Source: a virus (taxonomy: Duplodnaviria; Heunggongvirae; Uroviricota; Caudoviricetes). Taken from it: a DNA stretch of 6,866 bases. Shown here piece by piece: positions 1 through 6,218 of the stretch. The position numbers were made by a program, and so were the translations under genes. The DNA lies in IMG/VR virus record IMGVR_UViG_2558860274_000009, positions 1 to 6,866 of that record; one strand, 5' to 3'. Numbering within the stretch: the first letter of the stretch is position 1; each line of letters opens with the position of its first letter. The notes below the pieces were generated by a model, which saw nothing but the letters and a program-made list of their open reading frames with translations, was not told the DNA's origin and ran no database searches.

Positions 1-17
1 TTTTATTTCTTCATGCC

Positions 18-41
18 AAAAGGGAGTAATCTCCCTTTTTT
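18..41 (+). terminator. Rho-independent terminator-like hairpin upstream of yfaA
   Basis: AAAA / GGGAG (22-26) - loop TAAT - CTCCC (31-35) followed by TTTTTT (36-41). Likely terminates the upstream gene (gyrA in the K-12 gene order, if this locus is syntenic). Confidence 0.45.
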
Positions 42-148
42 GAATTGAAAAGTCCAGGCTGCAAAGTCTGGGCTTTTGTTGTATTAAGGCGCGAGAAAAT
101 TTTGCATCGCCCGTAAAAAATGGCTGGCTTTACACAAGGAATGTGGCA

Positions 149-1846
149 ATGAGTGGTGAAAAAAGGGCGAAAGGCTGGCGGTTTTATGGTCTTGTAGGTT
201 TTGGCGCAATAGCACTGCTTTCCGCGGGTGTCTGGGCATTGCAATATGCTGGCAGTGGGCCAGAAAAAACGTTGTCGCCTCTGGTGGTGCACAACAATCT
301 GCAAATCGATCTCAATGAGCCGGACCTCTTTCTCGACAGCGATTCGTTAAGCCAGCTTCCCAAAGACCTCCTCACAATTCCTTTTCTGCGCGATGTTCTA
401 AGTGAAGATTTTGTTTTTTATTATCAGAACCATGCTGACCGTCTGGGGATTGAAGGTAGTATTCGGCGCATTGTGTATGAACATGATTTAACGCTGAAAG
501 ATAAGCTCTTTTCTTCATTGTTAGACCAGCCAGCGCAAGCGGCGCTGTGGCACGACAAACAAGGCCATCTCTCGCATTATATCGTGCTGATTCAACGCAG
601 TGGTTTGAGTAAGTTATTGGAGCCGTTACTGTTTGCCGCCACCAGCGACAGCCAGTTAAGTAAGACGGAGATCAGTAGCATTACGATTAATAATGAAACC
701 ATACCTGTTTATCAACTGCGCTATAACGGCAATAACTCACTGCTGTTTACCCGTTATCAGGACAAGATGCTGGTTTTTTCCAGCACAGATATGTTGTTTA
801 AAGGCGACCAGCAGGATACCGAAGCCACGGCGATCGCGAGTGATTTGTTGAGCGGGAAAAAACACTGGGAGGCCAGCTTTGGCCTGGAAGACCGTTTACA
901 ATCCTCCGCTGAAAAAACACTTGTTCGCCAGCGTATCGTGGTTAGCGCTAATTTGCTGGGTTTAGGTTACCAGCGGTTAATTCCTTCTTTTGCTGGCGTG
1001 CGCTTTGAAATGAGCAATGATGGCTGGCGCAGCTTTCTGGCGTTGAATGATGAATCCGCCAGTGTCGATGCCAGTTTTGATTTCACTCCGGTATGGCGCA
1101 GTATGCCTGCTGGTGCCAGCTTCTGCGTGGCGCTGCCTTATTCGCACGGTATTGCCGAAGAGATGCTCTCGCATATCAGCCAGGAAAACGACAAATTGAG
1201 CGGGATGTTGGACGGTGCTGCCGGGCTATGCTGGTATGAAGATTCCAGGTTGCAAACCCCCCTGTTTGTTGGCCAATTTGATGGCGCTGCCGAGCAAGCG
1301 CAACTGCCAGGGAAGCTGTTTACACAAACAATCGGGGCCCTCGAGAGCAAAGCACCTGAAGGTGTGTTGCCGGTAACGCAAACACAACAGGGCGACGCGC
1401 AAATCTGGCGGCGTGAAGTCAGCTCCCGTTATGGTCAGTATCCCGCAGCCCAGGCGGCGAAACCAGAACAACTGATGTCCGATTATTTTTTCCGCGTCTC
1501 GCTGGCGATGCAGAACAAGACGCTGATTTTCTCCCTTGACGACACGCTGGTCAATAACGCGCTGCAAACGCTGAACAAAACGCGCCCGGCAATGGTGGAT
1601 GTAATACCGGCTGATGGCGTCATTCCGGTCTATATCAATCCACAAGGGGTGGCAAAATTACTGCGTAATGAAACATTGGCCAGCTTGCCAAAAAACCTTG
1701 AGCCTGTTTTTTATAACGCAGCGCAGACTTTATTAATGCCGAAGCTGGACGCTTTATCGCAACAACCCCGTTATGCAATGAAACTGGTCAAGATGGAGCC
1801 CGGGGCTGCCTGGCAGTGGTTGCCTGTTAGCTGGCAACCATTATGA
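149..1846 (+). CDS. yfaA: YfaA-like protein (DUF2138 family), member of the yfaS alpha-2-macroglobulin operon
   Basis: Long ORF (track 143..1846, GTG at 143). ATG at 149 is preferred because AAGGA at 135-139 gives a 9-nt spacer. N-terminal hydrophobic segment [25 protein letters not shown] suggests a signal anchor. Protein recognised from memory as E. coli YfaA; gene order yfaA then yfaT matches the K-12 locus. Confidence 0.85.
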
Positions 1847-2469
1847 GGCGCGTGTTGTCGGCGCTGATTTGCTGGCTGTTTTGTTTTTTCGCCCATAGCG
1901 AAATGCTGGATGTCGAACAATCGGGACTATTTCGTGCCTGGTTTGTGCGCATTGCCCAGGAACAACTTCGTCAGGGGCCAAGCCCACGTTGGTATCAGCA
2001 GGATTGCGCGGGTCTGGTGCGCTTTGCGGCAAACGAGGCGTTGAAAGTTCATGACAGTAAATGGCTAAAAAATAACAGCATATCTAACCAATATCTGCCG
2101 CCGGAGATGGCGCTAACACCTGAACAGCGGCAATTGGCACAAAACTGGAGCCAGGGGAATGGGAAAACTGGCCCCTATGTGACCGCAATTAATTTGATTC
2201 AGTACAACAGCCATTTTATTGGCCAGGACATAAACCAGGCGTTGCCTGGCGATATGATTTTTTTCGATCAGGGCGATGACCAGCACTTAATGGTATGGAT
2301 GGGACGTTACATCATCTACCACACCGGAAGCGCCACAAAAACTGACAACGGAATGCGCGCAGTCAGTCTGCAACAACTTATGACATGGAAGTTGTATATT
2401 AAAAATTTCATTAATTATCAATATGTTAATGTGCGCTGGTCATTATTAATCAAAATAAAACCATTATGA
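1843..2469 (+). CDS. yfaT: YfaT-like protein (DUF1175 family); 3' end appears to be encoded by prophage arm DNA
   Basis: 208-codon ORF. ATG at 1843 overlaps the yfaA stop (ATGA), indicating translational coupling. N-terminus [19 protein letters not shown] looks like a signal peptide. Composition switches to AT-rich at about 2378, so the last ~28 codons lie in the phage attachment arm. Confidence 0.7.
2376..2463. other. attL: attL-like region: candidate core (about 2376-2390) plus phage P' arm with arm-type Int-binding-like motifs
   Basis: Region 2391-2446 aligns by eye with the lambda P' arm (lambda GTTGGCATTATAAAAAAGCATTGCTTATCAATTTGTTGCAACGAACAGGTCACTAT versus window gttgtatattaaaaatttcattaattatcaatatgttaatgtgcgctggtcattat). 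Arm-type-like GGTCATTAT and AACCATTAT precede the int stop, as in lambda. The 15 bp at the core position (acttatgacatggaa) differ from the lambda core. Sharp GC to AT switch at about 2378. Confidence 0.5.
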
Positions 2470-3534
2470 TATTTCAATTTTGTCCCACTCCCGCCCGCGA
2501 CTGTCCCTGTAACGCGCCGCCATTGAATCTGATTTATGCCCGAGAAGACGTTGAGCAAACTTATCGCCAATCTGATTCCGGTATAGCCTCGCCGACAGGC
2601 TGCGCAGTTCATGGAATGTTGGCGGGTCTCCATCAAATGAGAGTCCAGATGCATTTCTCGCCTTTGTAAAATACTTAGATACTGTTTTCGGGGAAAGCGG
2701 TTCGTGATGCGTTGATGCAATTATTGTTTCACTGCCGCTGGCCTCCCTGCATTTCTGTAGTGTATCAGCCAATGAGATATTGAGCGCGTCAATCGTTAGC
2801 GTCAGCGGAATGGCGAGCTTAGCCCCTGTTTTACCCTGCTCAATGTGAAGATGGTTGTCGTTTATGTCTGACCATTTCATTCTGCATAAATCGCCTACTC
2901 TCTGCCCTGTAACGACAGCCAAATCCATTGCCAGCCTCAGCCAGATTGGGAGCGGTTCGGCTGCATGGTAAATCGCGACATATTCATTAGCTGTCAGTCT
3001 TGAACGCCTTACTTCTGATTTTTCTGTGCGGGTTGCTGTTACCGGATTCGTAGCCACATGCCCCTCGGCTATTGCCTCACGAAAAACGTCAACAAGGGTT
3101 GACCTGATTAATTTTGCGGAAGCCGCTTTACCTTCTGCTACGTAGGTGTTTAGCATTGCTGCCACCTCTTTCGTTGATATGTCAGCGAGCGGTTTGTCCG
3201 GCAATTTTCTTCGGATTGCCCTGATTTTGCTGGCGTAGTCGAGTAGAGTTTTCGGCCTGATACCCCTCTCGCTGAGGATTGTTTCATATCGGTCAAGCCA
3301 CGCATGAAGAGTGATTGCGTCAGCGCCTTTAATTCTGTCTATCAGTGACTCACGCCTGTTCCCGGATAGCAACTCAATATTGGCCTGTATTGCTTCAGTG
3401 ATTGCTATCCTCCTGTCTCGGCCTAATCCGAACTCTTTACCCGTCCTTGGGTCCCTGTAGCAGTAATATCCATTGTTTCTTATATAAAGGTTAGGGGGTA
3501 AATCCCGGCGCTCATGACTTCGCCTTCTTCCCAT
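2464..3534 (-). CDS. int: Lambda-family tyrosine integrase
   Basis: 356 aa. First ~55 aa ([55 protein letters not shown]) match lambda Int arm-binding domain as recalled; the rest is diverged but retains the catalytic signature ([24 protein letters not shown] with the terminal Tyr) and the C-terminal REWDKIEI. Overlaps xis by 23 bp as in lambda. Confidence 0.95.
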
Positions 3535-3730
3535 TTCTGATCCTCTTCAAAAGGCTACTTGTTACTGGTCGATTTAAGTCAACCTTTACCGCTGATTCGT
3601 GGAACAGATACTCTCTTCCATCCTTAACCGGAGGAGGGAATATCCTGCATTCGCGCACCCATCGACGAACTGTTTCAAGGCTTCTTGGGCGTCGCTGGCG
3701 TGCATTCCACTCCTGAAGTGTCAAGTACAT
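3512..3730 (-). CDS. xis: Excisionase Xis (near-identical to phage lambda Xis)
   Basis: 72 aa, [70 protein letters not shown]; matches lambda Xis from memory except about 2 residues. Sits directly upstream of and overlapping int. Confidence 0.95.
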   Translation of the reverse strand: MYLTLQEWNARQRRPRSLETVRRWVRECRIFPPPVKDGREYLFHESAVKVDLNRPVTSSLLKRIRNGKKAKS

Positions 3731-3750
3731 CGCAAAGTCTCCGCAATTAC

Positions 3751-3776
3751 ACGCAAGAAAAGCCGCATTGATGCGG
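3751..3776 (-). terminator. Hairpin plus T-tract on the minus strand just upstream of xis
   Basis: Perfect 7-bp stem GCCGCAT / loop TG / ATGCGGC (3761-3776). On the minus strand it is followed by TTTTCTTG. Lambda has a hairpin at the equivalent position as recalled. Confidence 0.3.
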
Positions 3777-3953
3777 CAATGGTAGGTCTGGATATCTTGA
3801 GAAATGAACAGGCCTCATTGAGTGTGAGGCTGTGGTTAGTCCTTGCGTAGCTCGCTAATTCTTCTGTAAGTCTCTGGTGCTTTGTTTCCGTGTATCTTCA
3901 TTTCAGACTTCAACAGAGCGACGAGGGAATCCCATTCGTTGAGGATGCCTTTG

Positions 3954-4088
3954 AATAACCTGGTTGCCCAGGGCAATGTTCTGCCTGTTCTGTACGGTGA
4001 ACTGCGCGTGGGGTCACGTGTGGTCTCTCAGGAGATCAGCACGGCAGATGAAGGGGATGGTGGTCAGGTTGTGGTTATTGGTCGCTGA
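3954..4088 (+). pseudogene. I: 3' fragment (last ~45 codons) of tail assembly protein gene I
   Basis: Translation NNLVAQGNVLPVLYGELRVGSRVVSQEISTADEGDGGQVVVIGR* matches the C-terminus of lambda gpI as recalled. The upstream part of track ORF 3882..4088 (MFPCIFISDFNRATRESHSLRMPL) has no I-like character, so this is a truncated remnant. Confidence 0.65.
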
Positions 4089-4089
4089 T

Positions 4090-4115
4090 AATCACCGCCA
4101 GCTATGACGGTGATT
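4090..4115. terminator. Inverted repeat between the convergent I fragment and sodC (possible bidirectional terminator)
   Basis: AATCACCG (4090-4097) ... CGGTGATT (4108-4115), 8-bp stem with 10-nt loop, immediately after the I stop and 15 bp past the sodC stop. No strong T-tract. Confidence 0.3.
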
Positions 4116-4130
4116 GCTTTAGGCTGTTTG

Positions 4131-4652
4131 TTATTTAATTATTCCGCATGCCAGTCTTGCGCCCCCACCCCCCAGAGGAGCAGGTGAATCGGAATGATTA
4201 TCCCCTCCGGCATGAATCATGATCGCCCGTTCTTTTATCTGGCTTATTTTTTTTATTTTTGGACTCAGAACCGGGTTTTCTGCATTTCCTTCTGAGTTGA
4301 CATAGAGTGCTGGTAGATCACCCAGATGGCCCTCCGGATTGTACGGCCCAAGATGTTTATTTGTTTGTTCAGGATCATAATGCCCACCGGCAGCAAGAGC
4401 TGGCACTTTTTTTCCATTAATCAGACCGGGATCACAACTGGCATTTTCATGGATATGAAAGCCATGTAACCCTGGTGGCAGTTCTTTCAGATGAGGAGTG
4501 AACAGCAATCCGTAGCTGGTTTCTGAAATAGTTATTTCCCCTATATTTTTCCCTACTCCTTCTGAGGAAACGAGATTTACAGGGATCGTCATTGTATCAG
4601 CCATTACGGCTCCACTAAGTAGCGCAGTTACAGCAAGTATTTTTTTTATCAT
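4131..4652 (-). CDS. sodC: Periplasmic Cu,Zn superoxide dismutase, prophage-borne (moron)
   Basis: 173 aa. Signal peptide MIKKILAVTALLSGAVMA. Cu,Zn-SOD motifs HGFHIHE, GGHYDP, GHLGDLP, HAGGDNHSD and C-terminal GGGGARLACGIIK. Opposite orientation to the flanking tail genes. Confidence 0.9.
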   Translation of the reverse strand: MIKKILAVTALLSGAVMADTMTIPVNLVSSEGVGKNIGEITISETSYGLLFTPHLKELPPGLHGFHIHENASCDPGLINGKKVPALAAGGHYDPEQTNKHLGPYNPEGHLGDLPALYVNSEGNAENPVLSPKIKKISQIKERAIMIHAGGDNHSDSPAPLGGGGARLACGIIK

Positions 4653-4785
4653 AAATACCCCGTCATTTCGTGTTGTTAATCAAGGTGATTTAAGTTTTAA
4701 CAAATGAAATACAACAGATGCATTTTTGTTGCAAGCGGTCGTTATATGGTTCGCATAAAATTGATTACTGTTTCGGGAATTATCT

Positions 4786-5162
4786 ATGGGTAAAGGTGGC
4801 AGTAAGGGGCATACCCCGCGCGAAGCGAAGGACAACCTGAAATCATCCCAGATGCTGAGCGTGATAGACGCCATCAGTGAAGGGCCGATTGAAGGTCCGG
4901 TGGACGGATTAAAAAGTGTGCTGCTGAACAGTACGCCAGTGCTGGACAGTGAGGGGAATACCAATATCTCCGGTGTCACGGTGGTGTTCCGGGCAGGTGA
5001 GCAGGAGCAGACACCGCCGGAGGGATTTGAATCCTCCGGCTCCGAGACGGTGCTGGGTACGGAAGTGAAGTACGACACACCGATTACCCGGACCATCACG
5101 TCGGCAAACATCGACCGTCTGCGCTTTACCTTCGGTGTTCAGGCACTGGTGGAAACCGAATC
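4786..5162 (+). pseudogene. J: 5' fragment (~125 codons) of tail tip / host specificity gene J, joined out of frame to collagen-like sequence
   Basis: [124 protein letters not shown] matches the lambda gpJ N-terminus as recalled. After about 5162 the same frame gives Arg/Pro/Gly-rich out-of-frame text to a stop at 5361. Full J is about 1130 aa. Confidence 0.75.
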
Positions 5163-5168
5163 CCCACC

Positions 5169-5738
5169 GTGGAGGGACCTCCCGGGCCAAAGGGGGAACA
5201 GGGGCCCGCTGGCCCTCAGGGGCCGAAGGGTGATAAGGGAGAGCGTGGTGACACCGGTCCTGTCGGGGCAACCGGCGAACGGGGACCGAGAGGAGATACA
5301 GGTCCGGCAGGCCCGCAGGGGTCGAAAGGCGACAGGGGGGAACGGGGAGAGACCGGTCTGACGGGAAGTACAGGTCCACAGGGGCCAAAGGGAGATACTG
5401 GTGCAGCAGGCCCGGCAGGCCCACAGGGACCGAAAGGCGAAACAGGAGCGGCAGGTCCGGTGGGGGCTACCGGACCTCAGGGGCCGAAGGGAGACCCGGG
5501 CGAGACACAAATCCGTTTTCGTCTGGGGCCGATGAGCATTATTGAGACAAACAGCTATGGCTGGTTCCCGGATACAGATGGTGCGCTCATCACCGGACTG
5601 ACCTTTCTTGACCCCAAAGATGCCACACAGGTTCAGGGGATGTTTCAGCATTTGCAGGTCAGGTTTGGTGACGGGCCGTGGCAGGATGTTAAGGGGCTGG
5701 ATGAAGTGGGCAGTGATACAGGCAGAACAGGAGAATGA
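5169..5738 (+). CDS. Collagen-like phage tail fibre protein, 5'-truncated (collagen triple-helix repeats plus C-terminal globular domain)
   Basis: This frame is open from 5031 with no ATG; the track start is GTG at 5169 and has no Shine-Dalgarno. 36 uninterrupted Gly-X-Y triplets (5175-5498), then a non-repetitive C-terminal domain ([77 protein letters not shown]). Typical of collagen-like side tail fibre proteins of EHEC prophages. Probably a remnant rather than an expressed gene. Confidence 0.6.
5175..5504 (+). repeat. Collagen-like Gly-X-Y coding repeat (36 consecutive triplets), GC-rich
   Basis: Direct reading of frame 3: [108 protein letters not shown], then GE. Confidence 0.9.
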
Positions 5739-5739
5739 C

Positions 5740-6009
5740 ATGAATATACTAAAAAAACTTATGCAGTGTCTGTGTGGTTGCGGAAAGCATGATGGCCGTG
5801 AACACGTGCAGTCGCCTACAGCACAGCTGCGACTGGGACCGGCAGACATTCTGGAGTCCGATGAGAATGGCATTATCCCGGAGCAGGCCAGGGTAATCAC
5901 GCAGGTGGTGATACTGGATGCGGATAAAAAGCAGATACAGTGCGTGGTAAGACCGCTGCAAATTCTGCGTGCTGACGGGACGTGGGAAAATATTGGCTGG
6001 ATGAAGTAA
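5740..6009 (+). CDS. Hypothetical small protein (89 aa) coupled to the tail-fibre gene
   Basis: ATG at 5740 preceded by AGGAG (5727-5731) and starting 1 nt after the tail-fibre stop (TGA 5736-5738). Sequence MNILKKLMQCLCGCGKHDG... has a Cys-rich N-terminus. Followed by a strong terminator. Track ORF 5608..6009 is the same frame with an upstream ATG that lies inside the tail-fibre gene and has no RBS. Confidence 0.55.
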   Translation: MNILKKLMQCLCGCGKHDGREHVQSPTAQLRLGPADILESDENGIIPEQARVITQVVILDADKKQIQCVVRPLQILRADGTWENIGWMK

Positions 6010-6025
6010 CCCGACAGCTTCACAA

Positions 6026-6050
6026 AACCGGAGTCTGGCTCCGGTTTTTT
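6026..6050 (+). terminator. Rho-independent terminator after the 89-aa ORF
   Basis: AAAA / CCGGAG (6028-6033) - loop TCTGG - CTCCGG (6039-6044) followed by TTTTTT (6045-6050). Confidence 0.65.
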
Positions 6051-6072
6051 GTTGTCATGTCATGGTGATGTT

Positions 6073-6087
6073 TGTTAATGAAGTTAA
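6073..6087 (+). repeat. Direct repeat copy 1 (TGTTAATGAAGTTAA) upstream of nleG
   Basis: Exact 15-bp match to 6191-6205, 118 bp apart, in the AT-rich region upstream of the effector gene. Confidence 0.7.
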
Positions 6088-6190
6088 ATTTATTTTGGCT
6101 TGATAATGGAGTCTTATCTTTTGCAAGACTGATAATGGTGTGTGAAAGCATTGTGATAAGTAAGATGCTTCAACAGGAAATCAAGTAAAA

Positions 6191-6205
6191 TGTTAATGAA
6201 GTTAA
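6191..6205 (+). repeat. Direct repeat copy 2 (TGTTAATGAAGTTAA), immediately upstream of the nleG ribosome-binding site
   Basis: Exact 15-bp match to 6073-6087; ends 13 bp before the nleG ATG. Confidence 0.7.
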
Positions 6206-6218
6206 TGGGGGTTTTATT

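Follow-up and report, generated by a model that had tools for sequence, protein, structure and literature searches.

Escherichia albertii is an emerging attaching-effacing enteropathogen, and prophage-borne sodC is a textbook cargo gene. In Salmonella, sodCI of the Gifsy-2 prophage encodes a periplasmic Cu,Zn superoxide dismutase from an antisense gene in the tail gene region, where it lies between lom and gpL. This gene is a proven virulence factor (PMC7380047). Lysogens express it at a high level with their lytic genes shut off, and accessory loci typically have an antisense orientation (PMC7067206). A different gene, sodCIII (STM0924) of the Salmonella prophage Fels-1, is likewise antisense but lies between the gpI and gpJ homologues, and the same antisense I-sodC-J order is seen in Stx2a-converting phages and for sodC-F1 and sodC-F2 of E. 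coli O157:H7 (prophages CP-933R/V). The two O157:H7 prophage genes are expressed, independently of growth phase, and their products are dimeric and more stable than the chromosomal SodC (PMC2569942).

The locus studied here lies in a stretch of 6,866 nucleotides (the window; IMG/VR record IMGVR_UViG_2558860274_000009, positions 1 to 6,866). As the initial annotation of this DNA had described, an antisense sodC is the sole gene between the stop codon of I and the start codon of J. The block measures 696 bp, and the gene is at 4131-4652. Its assignment to a kind of gene known from Salmonella and EHEC prophages was borne out by the Fels-1, Gifsy-2 and Stx2a phage genes, and the antisense I-sodC-J layout itself is already known from Fels-1 and the EHEC Stx2a phages, so that the window represents a new allele and a new host instance of it. 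The sodC-bearing enterobacterial viral contigs of IMG/VR fall into four classes, all antisense: the window type (6 contigs), the Fels-1 type (2 contigs) and the EHEC type (~30 contigs), all at the I-J position (~38 contigs together), and the SodCI type, at lom-L (15 contigs).

Closer comparison separated the window allele from each of these. The Fels-1 cassette is also ~690 bp long and has its left edge at the I stop codon, as in the window, but the SodCIII and window proteins are only 66% identical, and Fels-1 keeps the phage spacer hairpin before J, whereas nothing of the spacer is left in the window. The Fels-1 cassette (L002, 3944-4630) in turn aligned with 86% identity over ~690 bp to a copy on a contig with an IncFII replicon (L097, 4884-5582), which adjoins Tn3 and IS21 fragments. 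At one end the homology reaches the I stop codon of Fels-1, and at the other it breaks off just short of the phage spacer hairpin, so that one discrete unit is found both in a phage and on a plasmid. The EHEC sodC prophages resemble those carrying the window type in residing in an attaching-effacing pathogen and in having type III effectors aboard. SodC-F is, however, only 57% identical to the window protein, and the EHEC type, unlike the window, has ~190 bp between I and the 3' end of sodC and a different, GC-rich terminator. Gifsy-2 sodCI differs from the window gene in occupying the lom-gpL rather than the I-J position. The window allele therefore shares its antisense gpI/gpJ position with the Fels-1 and EHEC alleles, but orthology to either was rejected because of the 66% and 57% identities, the different junctions and untranslated regions, and nearest relatives that are not phage-borne.

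The sodC coding sequence (4131-4652, minus strand), delimited by the open reading frame map and by Pfam and NCBIfam profiles, encodes a product of 173 amino acids. The product gave a full-length match to Pfam Sod_Cu (PF00080) with 113.2 bits (cut-off 28.9) and scored 214.5 bits against the NCBIfam SodC equivalog NF007628 (curated cut-off 165). Its best matches in the PDB were Salmonella SodCI (1eqw and 6d52, E ~1e-67) and Yersinia SodC (2wwn), with 62-66% identity to these crystallised enzymes; Gifsy-2 SodCI, the best structural match, is 62% identical to the window protein. Bit scores were 231 for the dimeric SodCI and 224 for Yersinia SodC, against 191 for the monomeric E. coli SodC and 197 for SodCII, a lead as to whether the window enzyme may be dimeric. 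In the protein search of genome contigs, the relatives among the matches listed (Pseudomonas, Yersinia and others) had at most 65% identity.

We aligned the protein with SodCI, SodCIII, the EHEC phage enzyme (SodC-F) and four further copies from plasmids or other contexts. Invariant columns of this alignment contain every Cu ligand (H66, H68, H91 and H147) and Zn ligand (H91, H100, H109 and D112), the C73-C169 disulfide pair and the active-site R166, and the ligand residues also line up with those of crystallised SodCI; the roles of these metal ligands, cysteines and arginine are presumed from established knowledge of the family. A lack of conserved Cu/Zn ligand histidines had been named in the initial annotation as a potential objection to its assignment, and every ligand residue is present. 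The N-terminus (codons 1-18, 4599-4652, minus strand; MIKKILAVTALLSGAVMA followed by D) has K3 and K4, then a hydrophobic core and V-M-A before the D, and lacks a lipobox Cys; alignment to the mature SodCI chains of the crystal structures begins at residue 19-20 of the window protein. It looks like a cleavable Sec-type signal peptide without a lipobox. Since profiles, ligands and signal peptide are all present, we judged the parts of a periplasmic Cu,Zn superoxide dismutase to be complete: as read from its sequence, 4131-4652 is an intact gene for a periplasmic-type enzyme that is predicted to be active, and the original identification as a Cu,Zn superoxide dismutase was confirmed by the Pfam, NCBIfam and PDB matches and by the invariant ligands.

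The limits of the cassette were set by comparison with phages that lack it, as had been suggested at the outset. In BLASTN searches against phage Perceval, 3952-4089 matched the 3' end of I (91% identity) and 4786-5157 the 5' end of J (98%). The stretch from 4089 to 4786 had no phage counterpart, and no alignment extended upstream of 4786 in any phage of the collection. Because the phage alignments end at these points, the insert corresponds to 4090-4785 (minus strand), with its edges at 4089/4090 and 4785/4786. It stands in place of the phage I-J spacer, which in lambda and Perceval measures 57-59 nt and consists of a GC-rich hairpin followed by a T-run, and which has the same length in other top phage matches. 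The belief that the lambda I stop and J start overlap, on which the initial annotation had drawn, proved wrong, as the two are 57 nt apart with a hairpin between them. Among 418 phage records with matches to the I/J flanks, not one spans the insert (0/418), more than 400 lambdoid phages have only the ~59-bp spacer at this site, and nucleotide similarity to the insert itself was found in only 5 phage records. The GC content of the cassette is 42.5%, compared with 55.5% in the I' flank and 57.0% in the J' flank, and falls to 33% in its 5' non-coding part.

The left edge of the cassette is formed by the 3' hairpin of the sodC transcript (4090-4115, minus strand), found by an inverted-repeat search and by fold energy. 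Its arms (4090-4100 and 4105-4115) enclose a 4-nt loop, giving a stem of ~10-11 bp and 26 nt overall, with a fold energy of -15.9 kcal/mol (z -3.7) on the sodC-sense strand, so that the flanking hairpin reported at first is real. No canonical U-tract follows it, and the terminator scan made no call there. The same hairpin is present in a plasmid relative (L094) and in a relative from another context (L096), with one pair varying between U.G, U-A and C-G. It is therefore conserved across three genomic contexts with a compensatory change, and in both relatives the homology to the window ends at 4089, exactly at the cassette edge. These comparisons of sequence place the hairpin with the cassette and not with the phage, and it is likely to act as a terminator or as an RNA-stabilising stem.

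At the opposite end, the sodC 5' region (4653-4785, minus strand, divergent from J) was read directly from the sequence as 133 bp of 33% GC with a Shine-Dalgarno-like GGGG at 4658-4661. The upstream region attributed to the gene from the beginning is thus present, but the promoter scan of these 133 bp found no sigma-70 consensus promoter in it. A scan for CRP, FNR, PhoP and Fur sites returned one weak resemblance to a PhoP site (TGTATTTCATTTGTTAA, with 3 mismatches) and half matches of the FNR kind, which we discounted as being at chance level for DNA of 33% GC. The plasmid and other-context relatives carry a CRP-like palindrome, GTGA-N6-TCAC, ~100 nt upstream of sodC (L094, 4901-4914; L096, 2737-2750), and the upstream region in the window lacks it. 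An own terminator together with an own promoter is consequently only half demonstrated, the hairpin having been seen and the promoter scan having been blank. We also considered a transposon, an insertion sequence or an integron cassette, and rejected this origin: a repeat search of 3900-4900 gave only short edge matches of chance quality, with no terminal inverted repeats, target-site duplication or attC-type site at the cassette ends.

Morons, as Juhala et al. (2000) and Cumby et al. (2012) are said to have defined them, lie inserted between adjacent genes and differ from these in composition; they reportedly also have their own promoter and terminator, are expressed in the prophage and are dispensable for lytic growth. 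The sodC cassette is inserted between genes that are adjacent in related phages, and its GC content differs from that of the flanking phage genes. Its absence from the same site in more than 400 related phages, this difference in composition (42.5% against 55-57%) and the conserved 3' hairpin support its classification as a moron, the term the initial annotation had chosen. Moron-type expression from a repressed prophage and dispensability for lytic growth would be expected from the antisense orientation and by analogy with the published behaviour of sodCI and sodC-F. Taking these data together, the block is very probably a self-contained moron of E. albertii lambdoid prophages that encodes a periplasmic Cu,Zn superoxide dismutase.

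In the mechanism we propose, sodC would be transcribed from its own promoter, located in the 133-bp AT-rich region beside J and independent of lytic induction; such a promoter would be required because the gene is antisense to the late tail operon. The transcript would end at, or be stabilised by, the hairpin abutting the I stop codon. The precursor would leave the cytoplasm through the Sec pathway, with cleavage after Ala18, and the mature protein would fold with one disulfide, bind Cu and Zn and convert superoxide outside the cytoplasmic membrane, for example that of the host oxidative burst, into H2O2 and O2. In intact prophages, the antiterminated late transcript would have to read through the cassette to J, whose ribosome-binding site would also have to come from the last few bases of 4653-4785. 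Our expectations on export, metal loading and activity, and on a transcription of its own, expression in the lysogen and a host benefit, are projected from the enzyme family and from sodCI and sodC-F.

The origin of the cassette was approached through its relatives outside phages. Beyond the 99% cluster of the window SodC itself, the next relatives have 73% and 71% amino acid identity (71-75% at the nucleotide level); the former adjoins a fimbrial operon and the latter is on a plasmid contig with traD and ccdAB. These non-phage Enterobacteriaceae genes (P0002 and P0004, and copies on Salmonella environmental plasmids) are the closest to the window allele outside its cluster. They share its 3' hairpin and its 3' homology edge, but they adjoin traD/ccdAB, a gene for a SPATE autotransporter or a fimbrial operon, with no phage flank, and their upstream regions differ from that of the window. 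The phylogenetic comparison proposed initially was informative in part: it gave the 62% identity to SodCI, but the deep nodes of a neighbour-joining tree of SodC proteins were unresolved and its bootstrap values unreliable, for which reason pairwise identities were used instead.

We read these relationships, on the basis of the sequences compared, as indicating that the I-J gap has been filled, or its contents replaced, at least 3 separate times by cassettes that also circulate on plasmids. An alternative that deserves consideration, and that we regard as unlikely, is that all I-J sodC genes descend from one ancient capture, after which the window, Fels-1 and EHEC versions diverged or recombined, with the plasmid copies being derived from phages. 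Such a common origin would account for the single gap and single antisense orientation of the three types and for a left edge lying directly at the I stop codon in the window as well as in Fels-1 (the 3' regions of these two align weakly); it is also compatible with the unresolved deep branches of the tree. It is harder to reconcile with proteins that are just 57-66% identical to each other while SodCIII is 90% identical to the IncFII-plasmid protein and the window SodC is closest (71-73%) to non-phage copies. The junctions also differ, with the spacer hairpin kept in Fels-1, none in the window, and ~190 bp plus a different terminator in the EHEC type; the 5' regions of the three types have no significant similarity (z 1.6-2.0), and the plasmid copies have no phage flank. 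The 133-nt spacing between sodC and J that the window shares with the EHEC type was tried as a sign of homology and rejected, as the two segments have 33% ungapped identity, which was equalled by 233 of 5000 shuffles.

The exact 173-aa protein was found on 324 contigs under the record name "superoxide dismutase [Cu-Zn] SodC [Escherichia albertii]". Published genome papers assign the complete genomes with this protein to E. albertii. The allele is thus already automatically annotated in public genomes, and in the literature searched, E. albertii genome papers included, we found no discussion of phage-borne sodC in this species. The exact protein also occurs in a few E. coli drafts, whereas complete E. 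coli genomes contain no copy at >80% nucleotide identity and have instead the EHEC type (65%) and a poultry or plasmid type (68%).

Eight E. albertii loci, retrieved by exact protein sequence so that protein identity among them is partly by construction, were examined for context. In 7 of the 8, the cassette lies between a full-length I (190-200 aa) and a full-length J (1137-1159 aa), within complete-looking lambdoid prophages that have differing sets of type III effectors, among them NleG, NleB-like, Cif, OspG-like, NleC-like and SopA-like proteins. The eighth (L007, accession CP117580) is the same remnant as in the window, minus int and xis. In the prophages with full-length I and J the cassette is contiguous and 97-99.8% identical. 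Across the loci compared (L005-L012), copies of the ~697-bp cassette show 0-3 differences and the 133-bp 5' region is 100% identical, while the adjacent 372 bp of J have up to 25 differing positions. This pattern in the sequences suggests that the cassette has spread, or has been homogenised, across the mosaic tail modules of E. albertii prophages. Purifying selection, for which the zero non-synonymous differences might be taken, was rejected as a conclusion, the loci having been picked by exact protein identity.

The copy in the window is in a decayed E. albertii prophage, as judged by the arrangement of its genes, with I and J reduced to stubs. The chromosomal genes yfaA and yfaT (143-2469) precede it. 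The match to yfaT of prophage-free E. coli extends to ~2391, and that to int-bearing prophages begins at ~2377, which places the att core at roughly 2377-2391, where the host and prophage homologies meet; the last ~26 codons of the yfaT open reading frame (2377-2469) are phage-derived. An intact lambda-type int (2464-3534, minus strand) and xis (3512-3730, minus strand), both identified by Pfam, form the left end of this gutted prophage, which is integrated in the 3' end of yfaT, a site occupied by a full prophage in E. coli O26, O103 and other strains. Read against the O26 prophage and Perceval, homology to the former reaches 3956 and then jumps into I' (3952-4088, plus strand), which consists of the last 45 codons and the TGA stop (4086-4088) of the lambda-type tail assembly gene I. 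The 5' end of I' is thus a deletion junction with the xis-upstream region, with TGAAT microhomology at 3952-3956.

A second deletion lies beyond the cassette. J' (4786-5157, plus strand) holds the first 124 codons of the tip attachment protein J, and the Pfam family FNIII-A_GpJ matches only residues 86-125 of its open reading frame. At 5153-5157, across an AAACC overlap, it runs out of frame into the C-terminal portion of a collagen-repeat tail fibre, producing a chimeric J'/tail-fibre pseudogene of 191 codons (4786-5361); the counterpart of the window from 5153 on is inside the L005 tail-fibre gene. The preservation of I and J, asserted at first, therefore holds for the stop codon at 4086-4088 and the start codon at 4786 but not for the genes, of which only 45 and 124 codons are left. 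The collagen-repeat tail-fibre C-terminus (5169-5738, plus strand) and a Phage_fiber_C protein of 89 aa (5740-6009, plus strand), both assigned by Pfam and mapped to L005 and L007, are followed by a complete gene for an NleG-family type III effector of 215 aa (6219-6866, plus strand; Pfam T3SS_NleG, 4e-38), whose translation has a CPITL...P motif that we take to be U-box-like. This nleG has a low GC content (38-43%), has been retained in the remnant and ends with its final base at the window edge.

The remnant is missing almost all that lay between xis and I, and from J codon 124 to the tail-fibre C-terminus, and because the surrounding prophage has been deleted, the cassette would survive as fixed chromosomal cargo together with nleG. 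Its retention could be chance, and the window sodC might be a silent passenger of a decaying prophage that has merely not yet been inactivated. Both of its neighbours are pseudogene stubs, ~35 kb of prophage are gone and the AT-rich region upstream of the gene has no recognisable promoter, all of which would fit such a passenger. The sodC open reading frame, 5' region and hairpin are, however, identical to copies in intact prophages, two separate deletions come no closer to the cassette than 137 bp and 372 bp, and in another strain, L007, int and xis are missing as well, yet the cassette and nleG are still there. On this evidence we consider a silent passenger improbable.

Two further readings concern the insertion site. 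At least 3 unrelated cassette lineages occupy the I-J position, all of them antisense, and in two of these the plasmid homology ends a few bases from the I stop codon. It is conceivable, although we give it little credence, that the I-J spacer is a preferred landing site for hairpin-ended sodC units of ~640-700 bp that shuttle between IncF-type plasmids and phages; if this reading held, it would imply a precise and not yet recognised capture mechanism instead of random illegitimate recombination followed by selection. That a gene at the I-J position is ancestral and was lost from most lambdoid phages, a scenario already raised in the initial annotation, can practically be dismissed, since the recurrence of sodC at this gap in several phage groups is outweighed by the homologous 57-59 nt spacer with its hairpin in lambda, Perceval and hundreds of other phages, by a cassette GC content unlike that of both flanks, and by cassette homologues with the same ends outside phages.

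Returning to repeated acquisition of plasmid-shared cassettes, the locus offers a clean example of one intergenic gap in phages being filled repeatedly by unrelated versions of one accessory gene, and of the same sodC cassettes moving between plasmids and phages. In E. albertii, phage-borne sodC is plausible as a fitness or virulence factor because it is found on 324 contigs and in several effector-bearing prophages, and is kept in gutted remnants. The current understanding of morons and of SodC is unchanged by these findings; what is mildly unusual is only that unrelated cassettes, which plasmids carry too, have come to occupy the I-J gap again and again, and that this cassette has survived so tightly between two deletions.

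Two minor observations concern the rest of the window. Rfam gave a single, sub-threshold hit upstream of yfaA (Termite-leu at 15-89; 24.9 bits against a gathering threshold of 51, E 0.05), which is almost certainly due to chance. The L007 remnant (E. albertii CP117580) lacks window positions 2514-3955, a deletion that removes xis and most of int and has TAAC microhomology where its ends meet (window 2510-2513 and 3952-3959; L007 10694-10697). Its right breakpoint lies 0-4 nt from the older TGAAT junction of the window between the gene upstream of xis and I', so that in the window and in L007 two differing left partners are joined to I' at almost one base.
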